Below are positions 3,410 to 19,500 of a stretch of 23,266 nucleotides of DNA, in pieces; the first letter of the stretch is position 1; every line of letters starts with the position of its first letter. The notes beneath the pieces are model-generated. The model was given only the letters and a program-made list of their open reading frames with translations. It made no database searches and was not told the origin of the DNA. Source of the DNA: a virus; UHGV virus genome UHGV-0108413; one strand, written 5' to 3'. Made by a program: the position numbers and the translations under genes.

Positions 3410-4117
3410 TTATGCCGCCTGTTTTAGCTCGTTAACTCTGATGTTCATTACCTGAACGCATTTAGCCTGCGCCTCCTCGTTTCCAGCCATTAATTGCCAG
3501 TCACGCTGATAACGCTCGATGAGTTTTTTCTTGTCAGTTTCTGTTGACGCATAATCGCTGAAGTCTTTCAGGATTTGTTCGCAGTCAACCGATGGAGATT
3601 TCTGGTTGGTATTTTCTGGTGATGGTTTGTTATCTGATGCTGGGATTGCCCATCCCGGCAGTGATGGAGGGAGCCAGTAAAATCCTGTTCCATCCTTCAG
3701 TTTTGCCCTGTGCCACCCCTGCTTTTTATCGAGAGATGTTTGTGCGAAACCTTCCTCAAGGTTATACAGATACCGACCGATTCCCCACTGAACGGCAGCG
3801 CGCTTCATTGCACCGGAACGACCACCTTTGACGGCTTCTACCTGCGTGTTTTCAGCAGCATCCCATTTGGTTACCCATTCGGAATCAATCTTTATTGATA
3901 TGCCGCATTCAACGCCGCCGTTGTTGGGAATATCGCGGTATTCATTGCGCCATCCTGCTTTGCCGCAAACATCGTCCAGGCGTTTCATGATTGCCCGGTT
4001 CGTGACATAAGCCAGCACCATAGCCCACACTTTGCCATCGCGTGTTTTACCGCTTTGCTGTATTCGCCATTCGATATCTTCAGGGCTGAATGGCTCATCG
4101 AATTTATTCAAATCCAT
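3410..4117 (-). CDS. Rad52/Rad22-like single-strand annealing protein
   Basis: 235-aa ORF directly upstream of ssb. Motifs GWRNEYRD, GGVECGISI and AVQWGIGRYLY resemble Rad52-family annealases. GAGGTG SD upstream. Confidence 0.65.
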   Translation of the reverse strand: MDLNKFDEPFSPEDIEWRIQQSGKTRDGKVWAMVLAYVTNRAIMKRLDDVCGKAGWRNEYRDIPNNGGVECGISIKIDSEWVTKWDAAENTQVEAVKGGRSGAMKRAAVQWGIGRYLYNLEEGFAQTSLDKKQGWHRAKLKDGTGFYWLPPSLPGWAIPASDNKPSPENTNQKSPSVDCEQILKDFSDYASTETDKKKLIERYQRDWQLMAGNEEAQAKCVQVMNIRVNELKQAA

Positions 4118-13918: not shown

Positions 13919-14103
13919 ACGCCACAATTCAAACGATACCAGAGCTTCTTATCCAGACACGAGGCAATCAGACCGAAGTGGCGAGGATGCTTTCCTGTGC
14001 AAGAGGAACAGTGCTCAAGTACAACCGAGACAGCAAAGGCGAGCGTCACGTAATAGTTAACGGCGTCCTGATGGTCAAACAAGGCAAGAGGGGAAGACGA
14101 TGA
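13915..14103 (+). CDS. ninH: NinH-like protein
   Basis: 62 aa. TIPELLIQTRGNQTEVARMLSCARGTVLKY resembles lambda NinH. ATGA-coupled to rusA and Q. Confidence 0.65.
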   Translation: MNATIQTIPELLIQTRGNQTEVARMLSCARGTVLKYNRDSKGERHVIVNGVLMVKQGKRGRR

Positions 14104-14723
14104 GACTCGAAAGCGTAGCTAAATTTCATTCGCCAAAAAGCCCGATGATGAGCGACTCACCACGGGCTACGGCTTCTGACTCTCTTTCCGGTACTGATGT
14201 GATGGCTGCTATGGGGATGGCGCAATCACAAGCCGGATTCGGAATGGCTGCATTCTGTGGTAAGCACGAACTCAGCCAGAACGACAAACAAAAGGCTATC
14301 AACTATCTGATGCAATTTGCACACAAGGTATCGGGGAAATACCGTGGCGTGGCAAAGCTTGAAGGAAATACTAAGGCAAAGGTACTGCAAGTGCTCGCAA
14401 CATTCGCTTATGCGGATTATTGCCGTAGTGCCGCGACGCCGGGCGCAAGATGCAGAGATTGCCACGGTACAGGCCGTGCGGTTGATATAGCCAAAACGGA
14501 GCAGTGGGGGAGAGTTGTTGAGAAAGAGTGCGGAAGATGCAAAGGTGTCGGCTATTCAAGAATGCCAGCAAGCGCCGCATATCGCGCTGTAACGATGCTA
14601 ATCCCAAACCTTACTCAACCCACCTGGTCACGCACTGTTAAGCCGCTGTATGACGCTCTGGTGGTGCAATGCCACAAAGAAGAGTCAATTGCAGACAACA
14701 TTTTGAATGCGGTCACACGTTAG
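14100..14723 (+). CDS. Q: Late antiterminator Q (lambda type)
   Basis: 207 aa. Zn-binding CRDCHGTGR...CGRCKG region. Position immediately upstream of PR'. Confidence 0.9.
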   Translation: MRLESVAKFHSPKSPMMSDSPRATASDSLSGTDVMAAMGMAQSQAGFGMAAFCGKHELSQNDKQKAINYLMQFAHKVSGKYRGVAKLEGNTKAKVLQVLATFAYADYCRSAATPGARCRDCHGTGRAVDIAKTEQWGRVVEKECGRCKGVGYSRMPASAAYRAVTMLIPNLTQPTWSRTVKPLYDALVVQCHKEESIADNILNAVTR

Positions 14724-14765
14724 CGGCATGATTGCCACGGATGGCAACATATTAACGACATGATA

Positions 14766-14801
14766 TTGACTTTTTGAATAAAGTTGGGTAAATTTGACTC
14801 A
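14766..14801 (+). promoter_or_regulatory. Late promoter PR' with qut
   Basis: -35 TTGACT (14766..14771), 17-bp spacer, -10 TAAATT (14789..14794), then TGACTCAACGATGG as in lambda PR'/qut. Confidence 0.7.
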
Positions 14802-14829
14802 ACGATGGATAAATGCACTCGTTAAATAA

Positions 14830-14858
14830 AGCCCTGAGTTAATAGCTCGGGGCTTTTT
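14830..14858 (+). terminator. tR'-like intrinsic terminator about 58 nt after the PR' start
   Basis: 9-bp stem AGCCCTGAG/CTCGGGGCT (one G-U pair) with a 7-nt loop, followed by TTTT. Confidence 0.6.
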
Positions 14859-14864
14859 GCGTTT

Positions 14865-14880
14865 GCACAACAGGTAAGAG
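14865..14880 (+). repeat. 16-bp direct repeat GCACAACAGGTAAGAG, copy 1
   Basis: Exact copy of 15423..15438, 558 bp away; the two copies bracket an ORF-free block. Confidence 0.5.
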
Positions 14881-15422
14881 CATTCTCCCTTATGGGGCTT
14901 GGCTTAAATGCACCGAGTGCTCTTATCGTTGTGGCAGCACAACGATAGTTTTCGTCAGAGTTGGCGACTTTGCGGGTTTTTAGAAACTGACCACAAAGAT
15001 AAATGCAAACGATGATTTGATGTTGATGGCGGCCTAAGAAACCAAAGTCACGGGGTCTTCCGATTCCCCGCTACCAAATTCGGCGCAGTGGCCCGCTGTG
15101 ATTAATAATGGGCACCCAATAATGAGAGCGTTGGACAGTGGCGATGAGATTTCGCAACCCAGGAGCCAATAGATCGGGGATAGTGCGCATAATACCGATT
15201 GAGGTGAGTGCTGGAATAAGCATCGGGAGTCATGACCCAACATGATGCGGGAAAGCCAGCCACCGAGAGACCCGGCAGGGTAAACCGGCCTTCCGCTTGG
15301 TTATCAAGCAATAATAGCGCTCTCATTCGTGGGTAACAACGGGCATGTCGCCTTAGTAAATCCCTCAAGGGTGCGACGCATAGACCGGTACTAGCGTCGC
15401 CGTTAGCTCCACGAAACGGAGC

Positions 15423-15438
15423 GCACAACAGGTAAGAG
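15423..15438 (+). repeat. 16-bp direct repeat GCACAACAGGTAAGAG, copy 2
   Basis: Exact copy of 14865..14880. Confidence 0.5.
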
Positions 15439-15812
15439 TATTTGTAGAGTTCGACTCTCTACCGTGGGATTTTTTCCGCGATGCGAGCCATAAATGCTCT
15501 TTCCGTTGTGCTGAATTAAGCGAATGCCGGAAGCAGAACCGGATCACCAAATGCGTACAGGCGTCATCGCCGCCCAGCAACAGCACAACCCAAACTTAGC
15601 CGTAGCCACTGGCTATCCTGAACTCATCAGTGATAGTTATGCTGCGGCCTTCTACGCATGACCTTCGTGAAAGCGGGTGGCAAGAGGCTGCGCTAACAAC
15701 CTCCTGCCGTTTTGCCCGTGCATATCGGTCACGAACAAATCTGATTACTAAACACAGTAGCCTGGATTTGTTCTATCAGTAATCGACCTTATTCCTAATT
15801 AAATAGAGCAAA

Positions 15813-15828
15813 TCCCCTTATTGGGGGT
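15813..15828 (+). promoter_or_regulatory. sdi-like stem-loop upstream of the S dual start
   Basis: CCCC-TTATT-GGGG hairpin 5 nt before ATGAAGATG. Confidence 0.4.
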
Positions 15829-15833
15829 AAGAC

Positions 15834-16157
15834 ATGAAGATGCCAGAAAAACATGACCTGTTAGCCGCCATTCTCGCGGCAAAGGAACAAGGCATCGGGG
15901 CAATCCTTGCGTTTGCAATGGCGTACCTTCGCGGCAGATATAATGGCGGTGCGTTTACAAAAACAGTAATCGACGCAACGATGTGCGCCATTATCGCCTG
16001 GTTCATTCGTGACCTTCTCGACTTAGCCGGACTAAGTAGCAATCTCGCTTATATAACGAGCGTGTTCATCGGCTACATCGGTACTGACTCGATTGGTTCG
16101 CTTATCAAACGCTTCGCTGCTAAAAAAGCCGGAGTAGAAGATGGTGGAAATCAATAA
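15834..16157 (+). CDS. S: Holin S (class I, dual-start Met1-Lys2-Met3)
   Basis: 107 aa [34 protein letters not shown] with three transmembrane segments; near-identical to lambda S. Confidence 0.9.
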
Positions 16158-16617
16158 TCAACGTAAGGCGTTCCTCGATATGCTGGCGTGGTCAGAGGGA
16201 ACTGATAACGGACGACAGAAAACCAGAAATCATGGTTATGACGTCATTGTAGGTGGAGAGCTATTCACTGATTACTCCGATCACCCTCGTAAACTTGTCA
16301 CGCTAAACCCAAAACTCAAATCAACAGCAGCCGGTCGCTATCAGCTTCTTTCCCGTTGGTGGGATTCCTATCGTAAGCAGCTTGGCCTGAAAGACTTCTC
16401 TCCGAAAAGCCAAGACGCTGTGGCATTGCAGCAGATTAAAGAGCGTGGCGCTTTACCGATGATTGATCGCGGTGATATCCGTCAGGCTATCGATCGTTGC
16501 AGCAATATCTGGGCTTCACTGCCGGGCGCTGGTTATGGTCAGTTCGAGCATAAGGCTGACAACCTGATTGCAAAATTCAAAGAAGCTGGCGGAACGGTCA
16601 GAGAGATTGAGGTATGA
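16141..16617 (+). CDS. R: Endolysin R (lytic transglycosylase)
   Basis: 158 aa [24 protein letters not shown]; near-identical to lambda R. Start overlaps the S 3' end. Confidence 0.9.
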
Positions 16618-17051
16618 GCAGAGTCACCGCGATTATTTCCGCTCTGGTTATCTGCATCATCGTCTGTCTGTCATGGGCTGTTAATCATTACCGTGATAAC
16701 GCCATCGCCTACAAAGACCAGCGCGATAAAGCCACGTACATCATCGCTGACATGCAGAAGCGTCAACGTGATGTGGCTGAACTCGATGCCAGATATACAA
16801 AGGAACTTGCTGATGCTAACGCGACTATCGAAAGTCTCCGTGCTGATGTTTCTGCTGGGCGTAAGCGCCTGCAAGTCGCCGCCACCTGTGCAAAGTCAAC
16901 GACCGGAGCCAGCAGCATGGGCGATGGAGAAAGCCCAAGACTTACAGCAGATGCTGAACTCAATTATTACCGTCTCCGAAGTGGGATCGACAGGATAACC
17001 GCGCAGGTTAACTACCTGCAGGAGTACATCAGGACGCAATGCCTTCGATGA
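16614..17051 (+). CDS. Rz: Spanin inner-membrane subunit Rz (i-spanin)
   Basis: N-terminal transmembrane segment [26 protein letters not shown] followed by coiled-coil; ATGA-coupled to R. Confidence 0.85.
16813..16998 (+). CDS. Rz1: Spanin outer-membrane lipoprotein Rz1 (o-spanin), embedded in the +1 frame of Rz
   Basis: [20 protein letters not shown] lipobox, then a Pro-rich mature region ([16 protein letters not shown]), entirely within Rz. Confidence 0.7.
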
Positions 17052-17226
17052 TAGCGATAATTTTACTCATCATCCTTCACATCTGGCTCTGTAGACAGGG
17101 TGGTGATCACTTCTGGAGTGAATCCAGATTAAACATCTCATTGCTGATGCTTGATATTGAGCATCTGGCGCGCGGTAAGGGGCTGCGTTGAGATAAGAGC
17201 CAGTTCATTACAAATACCAGGATTTA

Positions 17227-17249
17227 GCCTCGCATTCGCGGGGCTTTTT
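17227..17249 (+). terminator. Putative intrinsic terminator downstream of Rz
   Basis: 7-bp stem GCCTCGC/GCGGGGC (one G-U pair) with a 4-nt loop, followed by TTTTT. Confidence 0.5.
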
Positions 17250-17393
17250 ATATCTGAATTTCACAGCGCATCTCACGCGCATATTAACGAGAGCCTTTCA
17301 GTAAGCGAGCCTGAGAAATGCCGTTATAGGTGGCGACCTCTCTCGGGCGGCTTTTCTGTGAGACAGGCTCACTTTCTAAAAGGTAAAGACGCT

Positions 17394-17891
17394 ATGAAAG
17401 CAATCACGCTTTTTAATACACCGATCCGTGTTGATGAATCAGGAATGATCTGCCTCACTGATATGTGGAAAGCCAGTGGTAAAAGTGAATCTGAATCGCC
17501 TTACCACTACCTGCGAAACAAGCAGACCAAAGAGTTCTTAGCCGAGCTGGAGAAAAACCACGAATCTGTGGTTTTTACTGAGCGCGGTGTACACGGTGGA
17601 ACATATGGCGGGAAGTTTGTTGCTTACGATTATGCGGCTTGGTTAAACCCCGGGTTCAAGTACGCGGCCTATAAAGTCCTCGATGACTACTTCACCGGAG
17701 AACTTCAGCATCGCAACAGCTTAAGTGCGCAGCTCAACATGAAATGTCATGAGTTTGACCAGAAGAAAGACATGGCGAGCTTCTGCGGACAAGGGCTGGC
17801 AGCATGGCGCTATACGAAGCCAGTGTTGGTCGCTGAGATTAACTCCCTGGCTAACCAGCTGCAGATTACGATCCCCGGGCTTCCGGGATGA
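17394..17891 (+). CDS. KilA-N domain protein
   Basis: Start at the internal ATG 17394 (AAAGG SD). N-terminus MKAITLFNTPIRVDESGMICLTDMWKASGK is typical of the KilA-N/APSES-like DNA-binding domain. Confidence 0.65.
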   Translation: MKAITLFNTPIRVDESGMICLTDMWKASGKSESESPYHYLRNKQTKEFLAELEKNHESVVFTERGVHGGTYGGKFVAYDYAAWLNPGFKYAAYKVLDDYFTGELQHRNSLSAQLNMKCHEFDQKKDMASFCGQGLAAWRYTKPVLVAEINSLANQLQITIPGLPG

Positions 17892-18151
17892 GTGATCGTG
17901 TTATTGAATGCGCCTCCAGAGCGGGGCGCGACTTCTCAGAGTTCATGAAAGGCGAGAAGGGCATGATGGAAGCATTGGCCTCGGTGGATGAGTTTGGCGA
18001 GCAGCTGCGCCTCAACGGCTGTGTCAATCATCACTTTGTTAGCTACATGATGCGGAACTCGATCATGCAGGCATTCATGGACATGGCAAAAGCCGAGAGG
18101 AAAGAAGAGCGCCGGCGTAAGCTAGCGGAAGCAAAAGCAAAAGTGAAGTAG
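17888..18151 (+). CDS. Hypothetical protein (87 aa) with a basic coiled C-terminus
   Basis: ATGA-coupled to the KilA-N gene. Confidence 0.5.
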   Translation: MSDRVIECASRAGRDFSEFMKGEKGMMEALASVDEFGEQLRLNGCVNHHFVSYMMRNSIMQAFMDMAKAERKEERRRKLAEAKAKVK

Positions 18152-18446
18152 CCATTACAAAGCCCATTTACGGGTGGGCTTGATAATGAAACCGGAATTT
18201 ATTCTGGGCCACCAGTTAACGGCAGTACAGCGAAACAACCCAAGCCAGTAAGTGGGGAAATAACACTGGCAGCCACTGAAAGATGAACCTCCTGCCTTAT
18301 GGCAAAAAAGATTCTTTGTGGTGGCGGACTGATGGAAAGACATCGGTTATTGCAGAGGCCATTCAATGAGTGGTCTCGACAATGGCTTATACCCTGCACG
18401 GGATAACTTAACTGATATCCCTTTTAACGGATAAACGGAGCCAACA

Positions 18447-18944
18447 ATGGCAAAGCTCACAGACAAACAAGAGCTGTTTTCCCATCCGGATGATGTGTAT
18501 GTCGGAGAGTGTGTGATTTATACCGGCTACATAAATAAGCGAGGGTATGGGCAGAAGCACATTTCACGAAAGCCGCACTACGCACATCGAATCGCATACT
18601 GCGAAGCTAACGGAATTTCGCTAGATAGCATCAAGGACCTGGTTGTTAGGCATAAATGCGATAATCCATCATGCGTGAATCCTGACCATCTGATTATAGG
18701 TACTGTCGCTGACAATAATCGTGACAGGTCAAGGCGAGGCAGAAACTCATACCCTGACCGTTCAGGTGAAAAGAACGGAATGGCGAAATTAAAAGAGTGC
18801 GATGTCATCTGCATTCGCCGCGAGTATGTGCGCGGGAGTGTAGGTAATGGGCTTAGGTCTTTAGCAAAGAGATATGGCGTATCCACTACCATGATTGCTG
18901 ACATCGTTAATCATAGAAATTGGAGCAATGTTTCGGAGGTGTGA
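18447..18944 (+). CDS. HNH endonuclease
   Basis: HNH core HRIAYCEANG...HKCDNPSCVNPDHL...NNRDR. GGAG SD upstream. Stop lies 1 nt before the TerS start. Confidence 0.8.
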   Translation: MAKLTDKQELFSHPDDVYVGECVIYTGYINKRGYGQKHISRKPHYAHRIAYCEANGISLDSIKDLVVRHKCDNPSCVNPDHLIIGTVADNNRDRSRRGRNSYPDRSGEKNGMAKLKECDVICIRREYVRGSVGNGLRSLAKRYGVSTTMIADIVNHRNWSNVSEV

Positions 18945-18945
18945 T

Positions 18946-19500
18946 TTGAAACAGCTCACACCTAAGCAGGAACTGTTCTGCAGGGAATATTTAAAAGATT
19001 TAAACGCCACTCAGGCAGCTATCAGGGCGGGTTACAGCGAGAAAACTGCTCGCGCCACTGGTAGCGAGAACCTGTCAAAACCTGACATAGCAGATCGCAT
19101 TGCTGAGCTAAAGGCTGAACGCAATGAAGAGGTAGGTATAGACGCTGCCTATGTATTGCGACGGCTGACTGAAATCGATCAGATGGACGTGCTGGATATC
19201 CTGCTTGCCAATGGCGAACTGAAGCCGATTAAAGACTGGCCTAAGGTGTGGCGTACAACGCTATCAGGAATGGATGTCGTCGAGATGGCATCAGCAGATA
19301 GTGCTGCTCTCCTGAAGAAAATCAAATGGCCTGATAAGGTTAAAAACCTTGAGTTGCTCGGGCGTCATGTTTCTGTTCAGGCGTTTAAAGACAATGTCAA
19401 AAATGAAGTGACTGGTGCTGACGGAGGACCAGTCAGAACAGAAATTACCAACTTAACGCCGGAGCAGGCTGCAGAAGCGTATAAAAAAATGATGGGCTAA
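18946..19500 (+). CDS. Terminase small subunit
   Basis: TTG at 18946 with GGAGG 6 nt upstream; the in-frame ATG at 18928 is an alternative. [28 protein letters not shown] is typical of small-terminase N-terminal HTH domains. Confidence 0.7.

Follow-up and report, generated by a model that had tools for sequence, protein, structure and literature searches.

What occupies the junction between the lysis genes and the packaging genes of a lambdoid phage genome, and does any part of it serve packaging? The virus genome UHGV-0108413 (23,266 nucleotides, the whole stretch being called the window here) raises this question at positions 17052-18446. An earlier note, made from the sequence alone, had described this interval as a cargo block between the lysis cassette and the HNH and terminase genes, and had suggested that a palindrome at its right end might belong to a cos site. 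The interval proved to hold an optional cassette of two accessory genes that phage HK620 was already known to carry, in the slot between lysis and packaging genes. Taking all parts together, we consider it probable that the cassette is a swappable HK620-type accessory pair encoding a late-expressed regulator, that a conserved hairpin (H) behind it acts on the late mRNA, and that the palindrome is neither cos nor pac.

The slot between lysis and packaging genes has interchangeable content

The region has long been known as a mosaic part of lambdoid genomes, and lambdoid phages have facultative, interchangeable content in the slot that separates their last lysis gene from the first gene for packaging. 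Two genes fill it in the window:

17394-17891, + strand: gene of a 165-aa KilA-N-ORF11CD3 protein (ATG at 17394, TGA ending at 17891), homologue of HK620 hkbK by Pfam and 98% DNA identity.
17888-18151, + strand: gene of the 87-aa partner, homologue of HK620 hkbL (phrog_875), in ATGA overlap with the KilA-N gene.

The pair shares 98% DNA identity with hkbK-hkbL of HK620, where it was reportedly sequenced in 2001, and about 92% with Stx phages such as 2851 and 1717. In HK620 and these Stx phages the genes, their order, their overlap, their position between Rz and the packaging genes and the non-coding tail behind them are all the same as in the window. What follows downstream is different: DUF2560 and a P22-type terminase in HK620, a PF01844 HNH gene and a P27-type terS in the Stx phages, and an HNH_3 insertion with a Terminase_2 terS in the window. 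The Stx phages also differ from the window in keeping a single H hairpin and in missing 18189-18348.

Close relatives (loci with L numbers below) carry other content, or none, between the same flanks. A Rha-ORF11CD3 gene fills the slot in L004 and P22, gp73 (a KilA-N-P63C protein followed by hkbL) in HK97, a Tad2-like anti-Thoeris-domain gene in phage Huey; another filling is a Gp49/Sf6 gene 66 family gene, and the slot is empty in L005, L006 and vB_EcoM-606R2. In the last, an isolated phage whose TerL is 99.4% identical, the gap between Rz and terS measures only 61 bp and holds a single H hairpin. Among 5426 complete E. coli genomes, the hkbK/hkbL block was present in 525, the downstream non-coding segment in 2572 and the Rz region in 4852. 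The comparison across relatives that the note had proposed thus revealed presence/absence polymorphism, and its view of the junction as a site for accessory cargo holds. Its description of lambda as having only bor and cos between Rz and Nu1 is roughly right, the lambda record listing two further predicted ORFs.

As first described, the block was ordinary, another instance of the HK620 gene pair. The slot is now delimited precisely, and since it holds Tad2-like and other conflict-type genes in relatives, about half of E. coli genomes have a known site that can be mined for accessory and anti-defence genes.

A KilA-N-ORF11CD3 protein and its small partner

The claim of a KilA-N domain gene was confirmed with Pfam (PF04383, 58.5 bits against a cut-off of 23.8, residues 7-101). 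The HMM search, which the note had suggested for both proteins, further gave a second domain in the KilA-N protein that the note had not mentioned, ORF11CD3 (PF10549, 50.5 bits against a cut-off of 25), and placed the 87-aa protein in phrog_875. The AF2 model of the hkbK homologue (pLDDT 84.7) contains one long helix at residues 86-156. Its best Foldseek matches were the DNA-binding domains of Mbp1, PCG2 and Bqt4; they were weak (E = 0.04-0.5, those to Mbp1 0.04-0.4) and had low TM-scores because of the long C-terminal helix. The model and these matches would fit an APSES-like DNA-binding domain at the N-terminus and a long ORF11CD3 helix at the C-terminus. No PDB sequence match was found for this protein or for its partner.

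The ATG of hkbL at 17888 overlaps the TGA of the KilA-N gene (17889-17891) as ATGA, exactly as the note had it, and hkbL is translationally coupled to hkbK. Its product is mildly basic (pI 9.06, 17 Lys and Arg against 14 Asp and Glu), again as described, and is modelled as three helices (AF2 pLDDT 91.2) in which C8, C45 and H48 are invariant and H49 is nearly so. Foldseek returned generic helical bundles only (E > 1), and neither NCBIfam nor Pfam gave a family match. In complete loci, hkbL occurs only behind KilA-N proteins, whose C-terminus is either ORF11CD3 or P63C.

In databases the two proteins are named only 'hypothetical', 'KilA-N domain-containing' or 'DNA-binding protein', and our literature search found no functional study of hkbK or of KilA-N combined with ORF11CD3. 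The likeliest role of the pair is that of a dimeric, DNA-binding accessory regulator within the Bro/Rha/antirepressor network. In such a scheme hkbL would modulate the KilA-N domain, and the pair would have its use in conflicts with the host or co-resident mobile elements rather than in virion assembly. Consistent with membership of the Bro network, ORF11CD3 is joined to an exchangeable N-terminal module, with Rha-ORF11CD3 at the same slot in L004 and P22. The modular design is that of Bro-network proteins and antirepressors, in which the N-terminal DNA-binding module is exchanged and the C-terminal module is common (PMC10111431; Iyer et al. 2002, as cited in a later paper). The closest parallel is Rha of P22 and phi80 (Phage_pRha-ORF11CD3), which has the same slot, the same leader and the same C-terminal ORF11CD3 domain; unlike Rha, the window protein has KilA-N as its N-terminal domain, and no hkbL lies behind Rha. 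Rha is reported to inhibit phage growth in IHF-deficient hosts (Henthorn and Friedman 1995, as cited in PMC8951638). Characterised members of the Bro network and antirepressors are mostly encoded in early or immunity regions, whereas the gene of the window belongs to the late operon and is accompanied by a small partner of its own. Since anti-defence (Tad2-like) proteins share the slot, the regulator role is only one of several accessory roles that it allows.

The lysis-side flank and late transcription

Three features precede the cassette:

17039-17191, + strand: 50-aa ORF from the ORF list, with a hydrophobic N-terminus, its ATG overlapping the end of Rz.
17226-17250, + strand: intrinsic terminator T1 (stem 17226-17245 with 8 pairs, 6 of them G-C, and a 4-nt loop, followed by TTTTT).
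17252-17393, + strand: conserved structured leader of the cargo genes, with inverted repeat I1.

The 50-aa ORF is part of the lysis module and lies outside the cargo. It matches phrog_11822 over its full length (E = 3.9e-38), is annotated in relatives as WP_001139680.1 (L004, L006) and as Sf6 gene 65, and is the ORF preceding an H hairpin in 34 instances. This conserved ORF, which overlaps the Rz stop, had escaped the first reading.

The terminator-like hairpin that the note had seen in front of the KilA-N gene is present, folds strongly (-14.1 kcal/mol, z = -5.1; none of 200 shuffles did as well) and is conserved in relatives. It has the G+C-rich stem-loop and U-run of an intrinsic terminator, and for transcripts without antitermination it marks the end of the lysis module. 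A mosaic joint lies beside it at 17251 in L006, L009 and L010.

Behind T1, the arms 17294-17313 and 17364-17383 of the leader pair with each other and cover the AAGG Shine-Dalgarno sequence at 17380-17383; between them lies a nested hairpin at 17320-17351, followed by UUUUCUGU. The leader as a whole folds with -38.9 kcal/mol (z = -2.7), and a compensatory change from AGGT/ACCT to TGGT/ACCA was found in the inner hairpin among relatives. Rha genes of relatives have the same leader in front of them, up to and including the ATG, and homology with L004 reaches 17398. As a candidate terminator, the nested hairpin with its U-run (17320-17360) was rejected; alone it folded no better than shuffles (z = -0.13).

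No sigma-70-like promoter was found on the + strand of 17052-17393 with a simple consensus scan, which weak or activator-dependent promoters would escape. TTCACA-16-TATTAA at 17260-17287, seen by eye, is a poor candidate. With no promoter in evidence and with terminators upstream, the cassette probably depends on the Q-antiterminated late operon for its transcription; hkbK and hkbL would then be made only late in lytic growth, from Q-modified transcripts. The P22-like prophage BTP1 has its lytic genes in one polycistronic operon (PMC7067206).

A covarying hairpin closes each cassette

Behind hkbL the window continues with the following elements:

18151-18189, + strand: H hairpin copy 1, directly after the hkbL stop (covariance model R1).
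18190-18345, + strand: conserved non-coding spacer with further hairpins and no open frame, found behind Rha genes in relatives.
18346-18385, + strand: H hairpin copy 2, with the architecture of copy 1 and a different apical stem.

The stretch 18152-18446 (295 bp) is non-coding, as claimed: in each of the six frames, stops interrupt the reading or leave only short ORFs that are not conserved. A coding reading was rejected on the same grounds, the small ORFs of Dewey and the N-terminus of ST64T orf-118 not being conserved as ORFs. The note had missed that the stretch is 94-98% conserved in HK620, HK97, HK022 and Sf6. It is also strongly structured (z = -5.2 against shuffles). Mosaic joints fall within the spacer region at 18188, 18201/18205, 18210 and 18344/18346; at the last of these other cargo genes enter, among them the Gp49-family gene of Sf6 and Huey. 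A tRNA scan found none, and Rfam 15 gave no match in the window at gathering thresholds and only chance-level matches in 16900-18600 at E up to 5, none of them on H or on the palindrome (P). The prophage sRNAs AgvB, AsxR and Pas were rejected as candidates; they sit downstream of pR' before the lysis genes, and their Rfam models found no match here.

The H hairpin has the form CAUUA-CA-[variable 9-10 bp stem-loop]-GA-UAAUG, that is, a lower stem of 5-6 bp, a CA/GA internal loop and an upper stem (9 bp in copy 1). The asymmetry of its arms, CA opposite GA, was kept in 112 of 113 copies, whereas the apical stems fall into 12 classes. Paired cells amounted to 98.7% and 96.0% in two alignments, against 31-51% with slid partners, and pairs that changed on both sides numbered 5 and 12 (12 of 16 pairs), with a covariation score of 0.43-0.49 against at most 0.15. 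Pairing in the large alignment, A4, is inflated because this alignment was fitted to the model; the MAFFT alignment A1 and a regex-plus-fold test are free of this bias, sequence relatedness being common to both. In the regex-plus-fold test, 44 of 45 unconstrained inserts between the fixed arms folded into the same hairpin.

Model R1 scored copy 1 at 55.4 bits on the + strand and 15.7 on the - strand, and copy 2 at 62.4 and 14.4 bits; the + strand of copy 2 also folds about twice as well as its - strand. U.G pairs are many, and together with this contrast of 55-62 against 14-16 bits they point to the sense strand. The covariation proves that H is a structure under selection on the + strand, a proof that applies to RNA and to single-stranded DNA alike. 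In the 0.5-0.9 Mb of phage DNA searched, H was confined to the lysis-packaging junction, with 1-2 copies per locus, and in 87 of 264 copies the hairpin starts 2-4 nt past a stop codon that ends an ORF of 50 aa or more. Mosaic joints coincide with H. In lambda both H and P are missing. We conclude that H is a covarying two-tier sense-strand hairpin that closes each cassette of the slot. As an intrinsic terminator H was rejected for want of a U-run, which is missing from hairpins H1 and H6. The 3' arm of H, like P, was also viewed by eye as a source of -35/-10 hexamers and gave no acceptable promoter on either strand.

The palindrome and an HNH gene inserted into terS

The right end of the interval and its continuation hold four features:

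18400-18425, + strand: palindrome P, GGGATA-N10-TATCCC plus TTTT, nearly invariant in about 140 loci.
18426-18455, + strand: translation-initiation region of the next gene (GGAG 18439-18442, ATG 18447 and the first three codons).
18447-18944, + strand: gene of a 165-aa HNH_3/His-Me finger endonuclease (Pfam HNH_3 PF13392, zf-His_Me_endon PF05551).
18928-19500, + strand: terS (Terminase_2, Pfam 140.7 bits; a RefSeq-annotated equivalent exists in L003).

The palindrome lies where the note had placed it, just upstream of the HNH gene that starts at 18447, with GGGATA at 18400-18405, ten nucleotides, TATCCC at 18416-18421 and TTTT at 18422-18425. No comparable match occurred in 100 shuffles, and the fold (-8.3 kcal/mol, z = -4.2) is predicted to have an alternative in which the right arm pairs with GGATA at 18431-18435. 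The near invariance of P extends to its loop. The picture of a block flanked by a terminator and a palindrome stands on its upstream side, where the terminator is real; downstream, P forms a weak hairpin around a loop of 10 nt, and some relatives have lost its T-run. P is absent from lambda and 606R2. Among genome contigs (one genome per species) it was carried only by E. coli, E. albertii, Shimwellia and mis-binned MAG contigs, and with so few carrier species its taxonomic breadth is narrow. Judged by eye, P is unlikely to contain an IHF or DnaA box. The initiation region behind it is common to relatives whatever follows, be it DUF2560, terS or HNH, and homology with HK620, HK97, L004 and L005 ends at 18455.

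The HNH gene interrupts the 5' end of terS, which the note had not recognised. The insertion spans 18484-18952; the first 11 HNH codons are terS codons, and in the HNH-less locus L007 the same ATG opens a terS that reads MAKLTDKQELF. Two copies of a 30-bp terS segment, at 18454-18483 and 18953-18982, flank the insertion, and terS restarts at an ATG that lies within the 3' end of the HNH gene. With this terS family, HNH was present at 3 loci and absent from 9 (10 sites, plus phage 606R2); those of the same terS/TerL family without it include L007, L019, L020, L064, L108, L127, L128 and 606R2. The protein matched the PADLOC 'homing endonuclease' model (E = 6.5e-5), and it shows the marks of a free-standing homing endonuclease, an HNH_3/His-Me finger domain and presence or absence at a precise site in terS. 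By these signs the HNH gene is a putative independent homing-type insertion into the first codons of terS.

It resembles HK97 gp74 in being an HNH-superfamily gene directly upstream of terS and behind the same conserved non-coding segment. Unlike gp74, a PF01844 protein of 119 aa, it combines PF13392 with zf-His_Me_endon in 165 aa, is facultative and lies inside terS. The gp74 type, to which the HNH protein of phage 2851 (PF01844) also corresponds, is marked by PF01844, a length of about 100-120 aa and constant linkage to the terminase and an HK97-like head, none of which the window protein shows. For annotators, an HNH gene beside terS would accordingly no longer be evidence of HK97-style cos cleavage, the present one appearing to be a mobile insertion.

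Competing explanations for the cassette and its tail

The note had raised the possibility that P, with the non-coding stretch, is part of a cos or pac recognition site and that the HNH protein is the terminase cleavage cofactor, as in HK97. Position is in its favour, P lying immediately upstream of the HNH gene and terS, as is HK97 itself, where the same conserved non-coding segment is followed by gp74, which assists cos cleavage, and then by the right end of the linear record, which we take to be the cos end. Yet P in HK97 is about 790 bp away from that end, and across relatives it precedes at least four unrelated packaging modules: DUF2560 with P22-type terminases (HK620 and Sf6, P22-like phages that package by headful from a pac site), HK97 gp74, Terminase_2/TerL, and lambda-like DUF1441 modules. 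Neither P nor H is co-inherited with one terminase type. Phage 606R2, so close in TerL, lacks both P and HNH; the same terS occurs without HNH in L007 and other loci; and the window HNH is of the PF13392 kind rather than PF01844. Among the head genes are those of a DUF1073 portal and a Mu-F-like protein, a combination typical of headful packagers. Comparison of TerL with named phages spoke for neither pac nor cos, its characterised relatives being only distant. The distribution of P therefore indicates that it is neither a cos nor a pac site, and the recognition-site reading is barely credible. As for the genes, the KilA-N protein and its partner could form a prophage-expressed abortive-infection defence or exclusion system, like the KilA-N-containing BstA. 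BstA is a prophage defence protein whose N-terminal domain is KilA-N (PMC8585504). PADLOC gave a partial match of the KilA-N region (33 bits, residues 60-90) to the candidate system PDC-S22, and the slot does host conflict genes such as the Tad2-like one. Against this, PADLOC found no match to BstA itself, the 165-aa protein has a C-terminus unlike that of BstA, and its gene lies inside the late operon, behind a strong terminator and without a detectable promoter, so that expression in the lysogen, which defence needs, is not supported. BstA genes reportedly adjoin the repressor. A defence system is thus unlikely here, and a late-expressed accessory regulator remains our preferred reading of the pair.

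For the tail, we think that the H hairpins most likely act on the late mRNA, in processing or in protection of 3' ends, and that they may thereby insulate neighbouring cassettes. The stretch might instead consist of recent, hitch-hiking remnants of decayed genes and terminators without a function of its own. Most copies are 92-98% identical, leaving little time for divergence, the stretch is pieced together with many joints, in ST64T part of it is read as coding, at the N-terminus of an annotated ORF, and lambda manages without it. Decay is nevertheless improbable in view of the fold of the 295 nt, far better than that of shuffles, and of H, which keeps its architecture and position through extensive compensatory change and 12 stem classes and persists even in the 61-bp minimal junction of 606R2. 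It is more improbable still that H is a single-stranded-DNA recombination site, comparable to attC, the hairpin ends of IS200/IS605 or REP, at which a structure-specific enzyme captures cassettes. Such a site would suit a conserved structure with a variable apical stem, a conserved base and a constant arm asymmetry, one copy standing behind each cassette and unrelated genes ending 2-4 nt before it. It would also suit the relic of an H hairpin (5' half, CATTACAAA) at the joint 17206-17214 just before T1 (repeats D6 and I5), and the repeated insertion of HNH_3 endonuclease genes at the junction, in Dewey and in this window. However, the gene families tabulated beside H include no integrase, Y1 transposase or RAYT-like protein; every H copy points in the direction of transcription and adjoins a stop codon, which an mRNA element fits equally; and no dedicated enzyme is needed for the joints, which ordinary homologous recombination between the conserved H bases can explain. 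In our main reading, H is probably also the place where recombination swaps cassettes, because it is the sole sequence common to otherwise unrelated cassettes.

More broadly, H may be a previously undescribed structured boundary signal of a late-operon cassette array, working in mRNA processing or stability or as a structure-specific recombination site; we hold this as a tentative idea, rather doubtful than probable. It would limit H to the lysis-packaging junction of enterobacterial lambdoid phages, with one copy closing each cassette. If true, it would explain the precise swapping of unrelated cargo, anti-defence genes included, at this spot, and H would offer a testable handle on what sets the boundaries of lambdoid modules and why exchanges fall there. 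The malE-malF REP and the T7 RNase III sites are intercistronic mRNA hairpins. Like hairpins of these types, H is a stable stem-loop of the sense strand that contains an internal loop, lies between cistrons directly behind a stop codon and lacks a U-run. It differs from them in having no sequence similarity to them and in its confinement to one junction of one phage group.

The cassette itself compares best with morons. Morons of lambdoid phages, such as the 'ant moron' of P22, show high turnover at a fixed place of the late operon (PMC2629481), and the cassette likewise consists of extra genes that are found in some relatives only, at a fixed place inside the late operon. Of the traits of a moron (Juhala et al. 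2000), it has presence or absence at one site among close relatives. It is unlike morons in that the sigma-70 scan detected no promoter of its own and that the downstream element is no canonical terminator, P being a 6-bp stem with a 10-nt loop and U4 that the terminator scan did not call; its boundaries are formed by the covarying hairpin.

Contents of the slot between the lysis and packaging genes

The window is the late region of a lambdoid prophage, and the features around the slot (17052-18446) are listed below.

Features of the late region
14100-14723, Q antiterminator gene (Pfam Antiterm)
14766-14794, pR'-like site 3' of the Q gene
14828-14856 and 14923-14948, two terminator-like hairpins after the pR'-like site
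15834-17051, lambda-type S, R and Rz genes
17039-17191, orf50, encoding 50 aa with a hydrophobic N-terminus, its ATG overlapping the Rz stop (phrog_11822)
17252-17393, 142-bp leader upstream of the KilA-N gene
18151-18189 and 18346-18385, + strand, two copies of a two-tier hairpin (H) inside a 295-nt stretch
Downstream of the slot, in order, HNH gene, terS (Terminase_2), gene for a 540-aa TerL, and DUF1073/Phage_portal_3 portal gene

The pR'-like site and both terminator-like hairpins lie in the ~1.1 kb gap between Q and holin (14724-15833), in which we found no tRNA gene, Rfam match or long + strand ORF; in relatives (FJ_Ec_21) tRNA genes occupy this position. Counterparts of orf50 include Sf6 gene 65 and WP_001139680.1, present in many prophages, and it is co-inherited with Rz, not with the cargo. 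The earlier note did not include orf50, the conservation and structure of the non-coding stretch, or the origin of the HNH gene as an insertion in terS.

The comparison of this junction took in annotated phages and prophages together with ~220 contigs retrieved by a pattern search. Results showed that the flanks of the slot were constant and its contents variable.

Slot contents in the compared loci
Empty: L005, L006, Ayreon
Rha-ORF11CD3: L004, P22
KilA-N-P63C (gp73) and an hkbL homologue: HK97
Tad2-like gene: phage Huey
Gp49/Sf6 gene 66 family gene: Sf6, Huey
Combinations of these: several viral contigs

In Huey the gene with the Tad2-like domain (Thoeris anti-defence 2, PF11195; 86.6 bits) lay at 1996-2496, between orf50 and H, and the Gp49/Sf6 gene 66 family gene was inserted at the equivalent of window 18344/18346. 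Among 5426 complete E. coli genomes, the Rz region was found in 4852, the downstream non-coding segment in 2572 and the KilA-N and hkbL block in 525. The isolated phage vB_EcoM-606R2 (606R2) lacked the block, with only 61 bp from Rz to terS; because its TerL is 99.4% identical to that of the window, the whole block is dispensable for a phage that forms plaques and shares the packaging enzymes. The block is thus present or absent across relatives rather than uniformly conserved with the terminase genes. This supports the proposal that it is accessory cargo, a reading in substance already known.

The palindrome and the HNH gene in relation to packaging

The palindrome GGGATA-N10-TATCCC-TTTT (P, 18400-18425) was present as described and is not expected by chance. 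It had also been proposed as part of cos, with the HNH protein as cleavage cofactor, and this is not supported. P and its surroundings preceded unrelated packaging modules: DUF2560 and P22-type terminases in HK620 and Sf6, gp74 and cos in HK97, the Terminase_2 module of the window, and lambda-like DUF1441 modules. P was absent from the 606R2 junction. The linear HK97 record continues for ~790 bp past this segment to its right end, taken here as the cos end. Furthermore, the window HNH protein (165 aa, His-Me finger loop) belongs to PF13392 HNH_3, whereas gp74 of HK97 and the phage 2851 protein belong to PF01844.

The HNH_3 gene was found to be an in-frame insertion at the 5' end of terS, with its start codon and first 11 codons taken from terS (18447-18982). 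In FJ_Ec_21, which has no HNH gene, terS begins MAKLTDKQELF at the very ATG used by the window HNH gene. A 30-bp terS segment occurs twice in the window (18454-18483 and 18953-18982) around a 469-bp insert, and a restart at 18928 gives terS a new N-terminus. The copy of the terS 5' end after the insert has diverged. Among loci with this terS family the HNH gene was present in 3 and absent in 9 (10 sites, plus phage 606R2), and the overall pattern is that of a free-standing homing endonuclease gene. Such genes entered the junction more than once, because phage Dewey carries a second, different HNH_3-AP2 endonuclease gene (3469-4020) between Rz and its KilA-N gene.

The stem and loop of P were nearly invariant among relatives, so covariation was uninformative, and the hairpin is weak (-8.3 kcal/mol). 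Its right arm (TATCC, from 18416) can alternatively pair with GGATA at 18431-18435, and some relatives lacked the left arm and kept the right arm with this second partner. P and the alternative hairpin, immediately 5' of the ribosome-binding site, may exclude one another. The ribosome-binding region and gene start (18426-18455) were common to relatives whichever gene came next.

A covarying hairpin at the cassette boundaries

The stretch at 18152-18446 had been described as 295 bp of non-coding DNA. Its length was correct and it held no credible ORF, and it proved to be conserved and structured (fold versus shuffles, z = -5.2). From base to tip, H has a lower stem of 5-6 bp (CAUUA/UAAUG), an internal 2x2 loop in which CA faces GA, an upper stem of 9-10 bp and a loop of 3-6 nt. 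When 19 distinct copies were aligned with MAFFT, pairing held in 98.7% of cells versus 31-50% with slid partners, and 5 pairs had changed on both sides. A pattern in which just the lower stem and the initial upper pairs were fixed, leaving 16-26 inner bases free, retrieved 45 distinct sequences from viral contigs, of which 44 fold as the same hairpin. Aligning 113 copies (76 of them distinct) to a covariance model, which favours pairing since the alignment is fitted to the model, gave 96% pairing, changes on both sides in 12 of the 16 pairs, and a covariation score of 0.49 versus at most 0.15 for slid partners. The apical stems fell into 12 classes, and 112 of the 113 copies retained the CA/GA loop. 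Numerous U.G pairs, model scores of 55-62 bits on the + strand versus 14-16 on the - strand, and a fold about twice as good on the + strand pointed to the sense strand. H is a selected sense-strand structure.

Across the 0.5-0.9 Mb of phage DNA searched, H was confined to this junction, with 1-2 copies per locus always co-oriented with the late genes. The upstream ORF was hkbL, Rha, orf50, Gp49, Tad2-like or Rz, and the downstream gene DUF2560, terS or an HNH gene. Of 264 H copies, 87 began 2-4 nt past the stop codon that ends an ORF of 50 aa or more, and 606R2 retained one H within its 61-bp junction. H was absent from lambda, and no family matched it in an Rfam search. H closes each cassette, and this covarying element at the cassette bounds is the unexpected feature of the region.

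H is ruled out as an intrinsic terminator because it has no U-run. H most likely acts in mRNA, where it would either direct processing between cistrons or protect 3' ends there. Mosaic joints lay at or next to H (17251, 18188, 18344/18346 and 18368), and recombination between its conserved bases would then account for the exchange of cassettes precisely at H. H could conceivably be a structure-specific recombination site in same-strand single-stranded DNA.

Expression of the cassette

The terminator proposed ahead of the KilA-N gene (T1, 17226-17250) was borne out, with a stem at 17226-17245 followed by T5 (-14.1 kcal/mol, z = -5.1), and unmodified polymerase would halt there. No sigma-70-like site was found on the + strand from Rz to the KilA-N start. 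In the P22-like prophage BTP1 a single polycistronic operon holds the lytic genes (PMC7067206). We infer that the cassette is transcribed within the late operon by Q-modified polymerase. Among the relatives compared, the leader was kept through the ATG (17252-17398) ahead of KilA-N and Rha genes alike. A predicted long-range stem pairs 17294-17313 with 17364-17383 and masks the Shine-Dalgarno, and the inner stem showed one compensatory pair change among relatives (AGGT/ACCT to TGGT/ACCA). Directly upstream of T1, CATTACAAA at 17206-17214 matches the 5' half of H, and some relatives have a full H after orf50 at the equivalent position. This half-H relic looks like a recombination scar within an H element.

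The KilA-N and hkbL proteins

Both cargo genes were as first described. The KilA-N gene (17394-17891, 165 aa) matched Pfam KilA-N (58.5 bits) and also encodes a C-terminal ORF11CD3 domain (50.5 bits); the coupled 87-aa basic protein (pI 9.06) starts at an ATG at 17888 that overlaps the KilA-N stop as ATGA. Window 17017-18452 was 98% identical to phage HK620, where the matching genes, between Rz and hkbM, are hkbK ('KilA-N domain-containing protein' in RefSeq) and hkbL ('hypothetical protein'). Stx phages such as 2851 and 1717 carry the same pair after Rz at ~92% identity.

As modelled by AF2 (pLDDT 84.7), the KilA-N protein comprised a small alpha/beta domain and a single long helix (residues 86-156). 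Mbp1, PCG2 and Bqt4 gave the best PDB matches to this model through their APSES-type DNA-binding domains, with weak E-values. HkbL was modelled as a confident three-helix protein (pLDDT 91.2), for which neither a sequence nor a fold relative was found in the PDB. In 20 homologues, down to 59% identity, C8, C45 and H48 were invariant, with H49 in at least 90%; the invariant Cys8/Cys45/His48 suggest a candidate metal-binding site. The family is confined to Enterobacterales and all members are unnamed. At the loci compared, hkbL always followed a KilA-N protein, whatever its C-terminal domain, and never Rha, which argues for a functional partnership with the KilA-N domain.

Literature and database names yielded nothing experimental on the function of the pair. 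Rha, which shares the slot, is reported to inhibit the growth of phage in hosts deficient in IHF (Henthorn and Friedman 1995, as cited in PMC8951638). Tentatively, the pair may be expressed late and act as an accessory regulator that binds DNA, probably as a dimer, with hkbL modulating the KilA-N domain; it would serve conflicts with the host or with other mobile elements. The position of the gene, the failure to find a promoter and the lack of a BstA match in PADLOC make defence of the BstA kind less likely.

In HK97 an hkbL homologue follows gp73 (~2261-2520) and is unannotated in the original GenBank record. Towards the C-terminus its reading frame departs from that of the family, and the RefSeq protein HK97p61 (77 aa) diverges past '...VSYM'.
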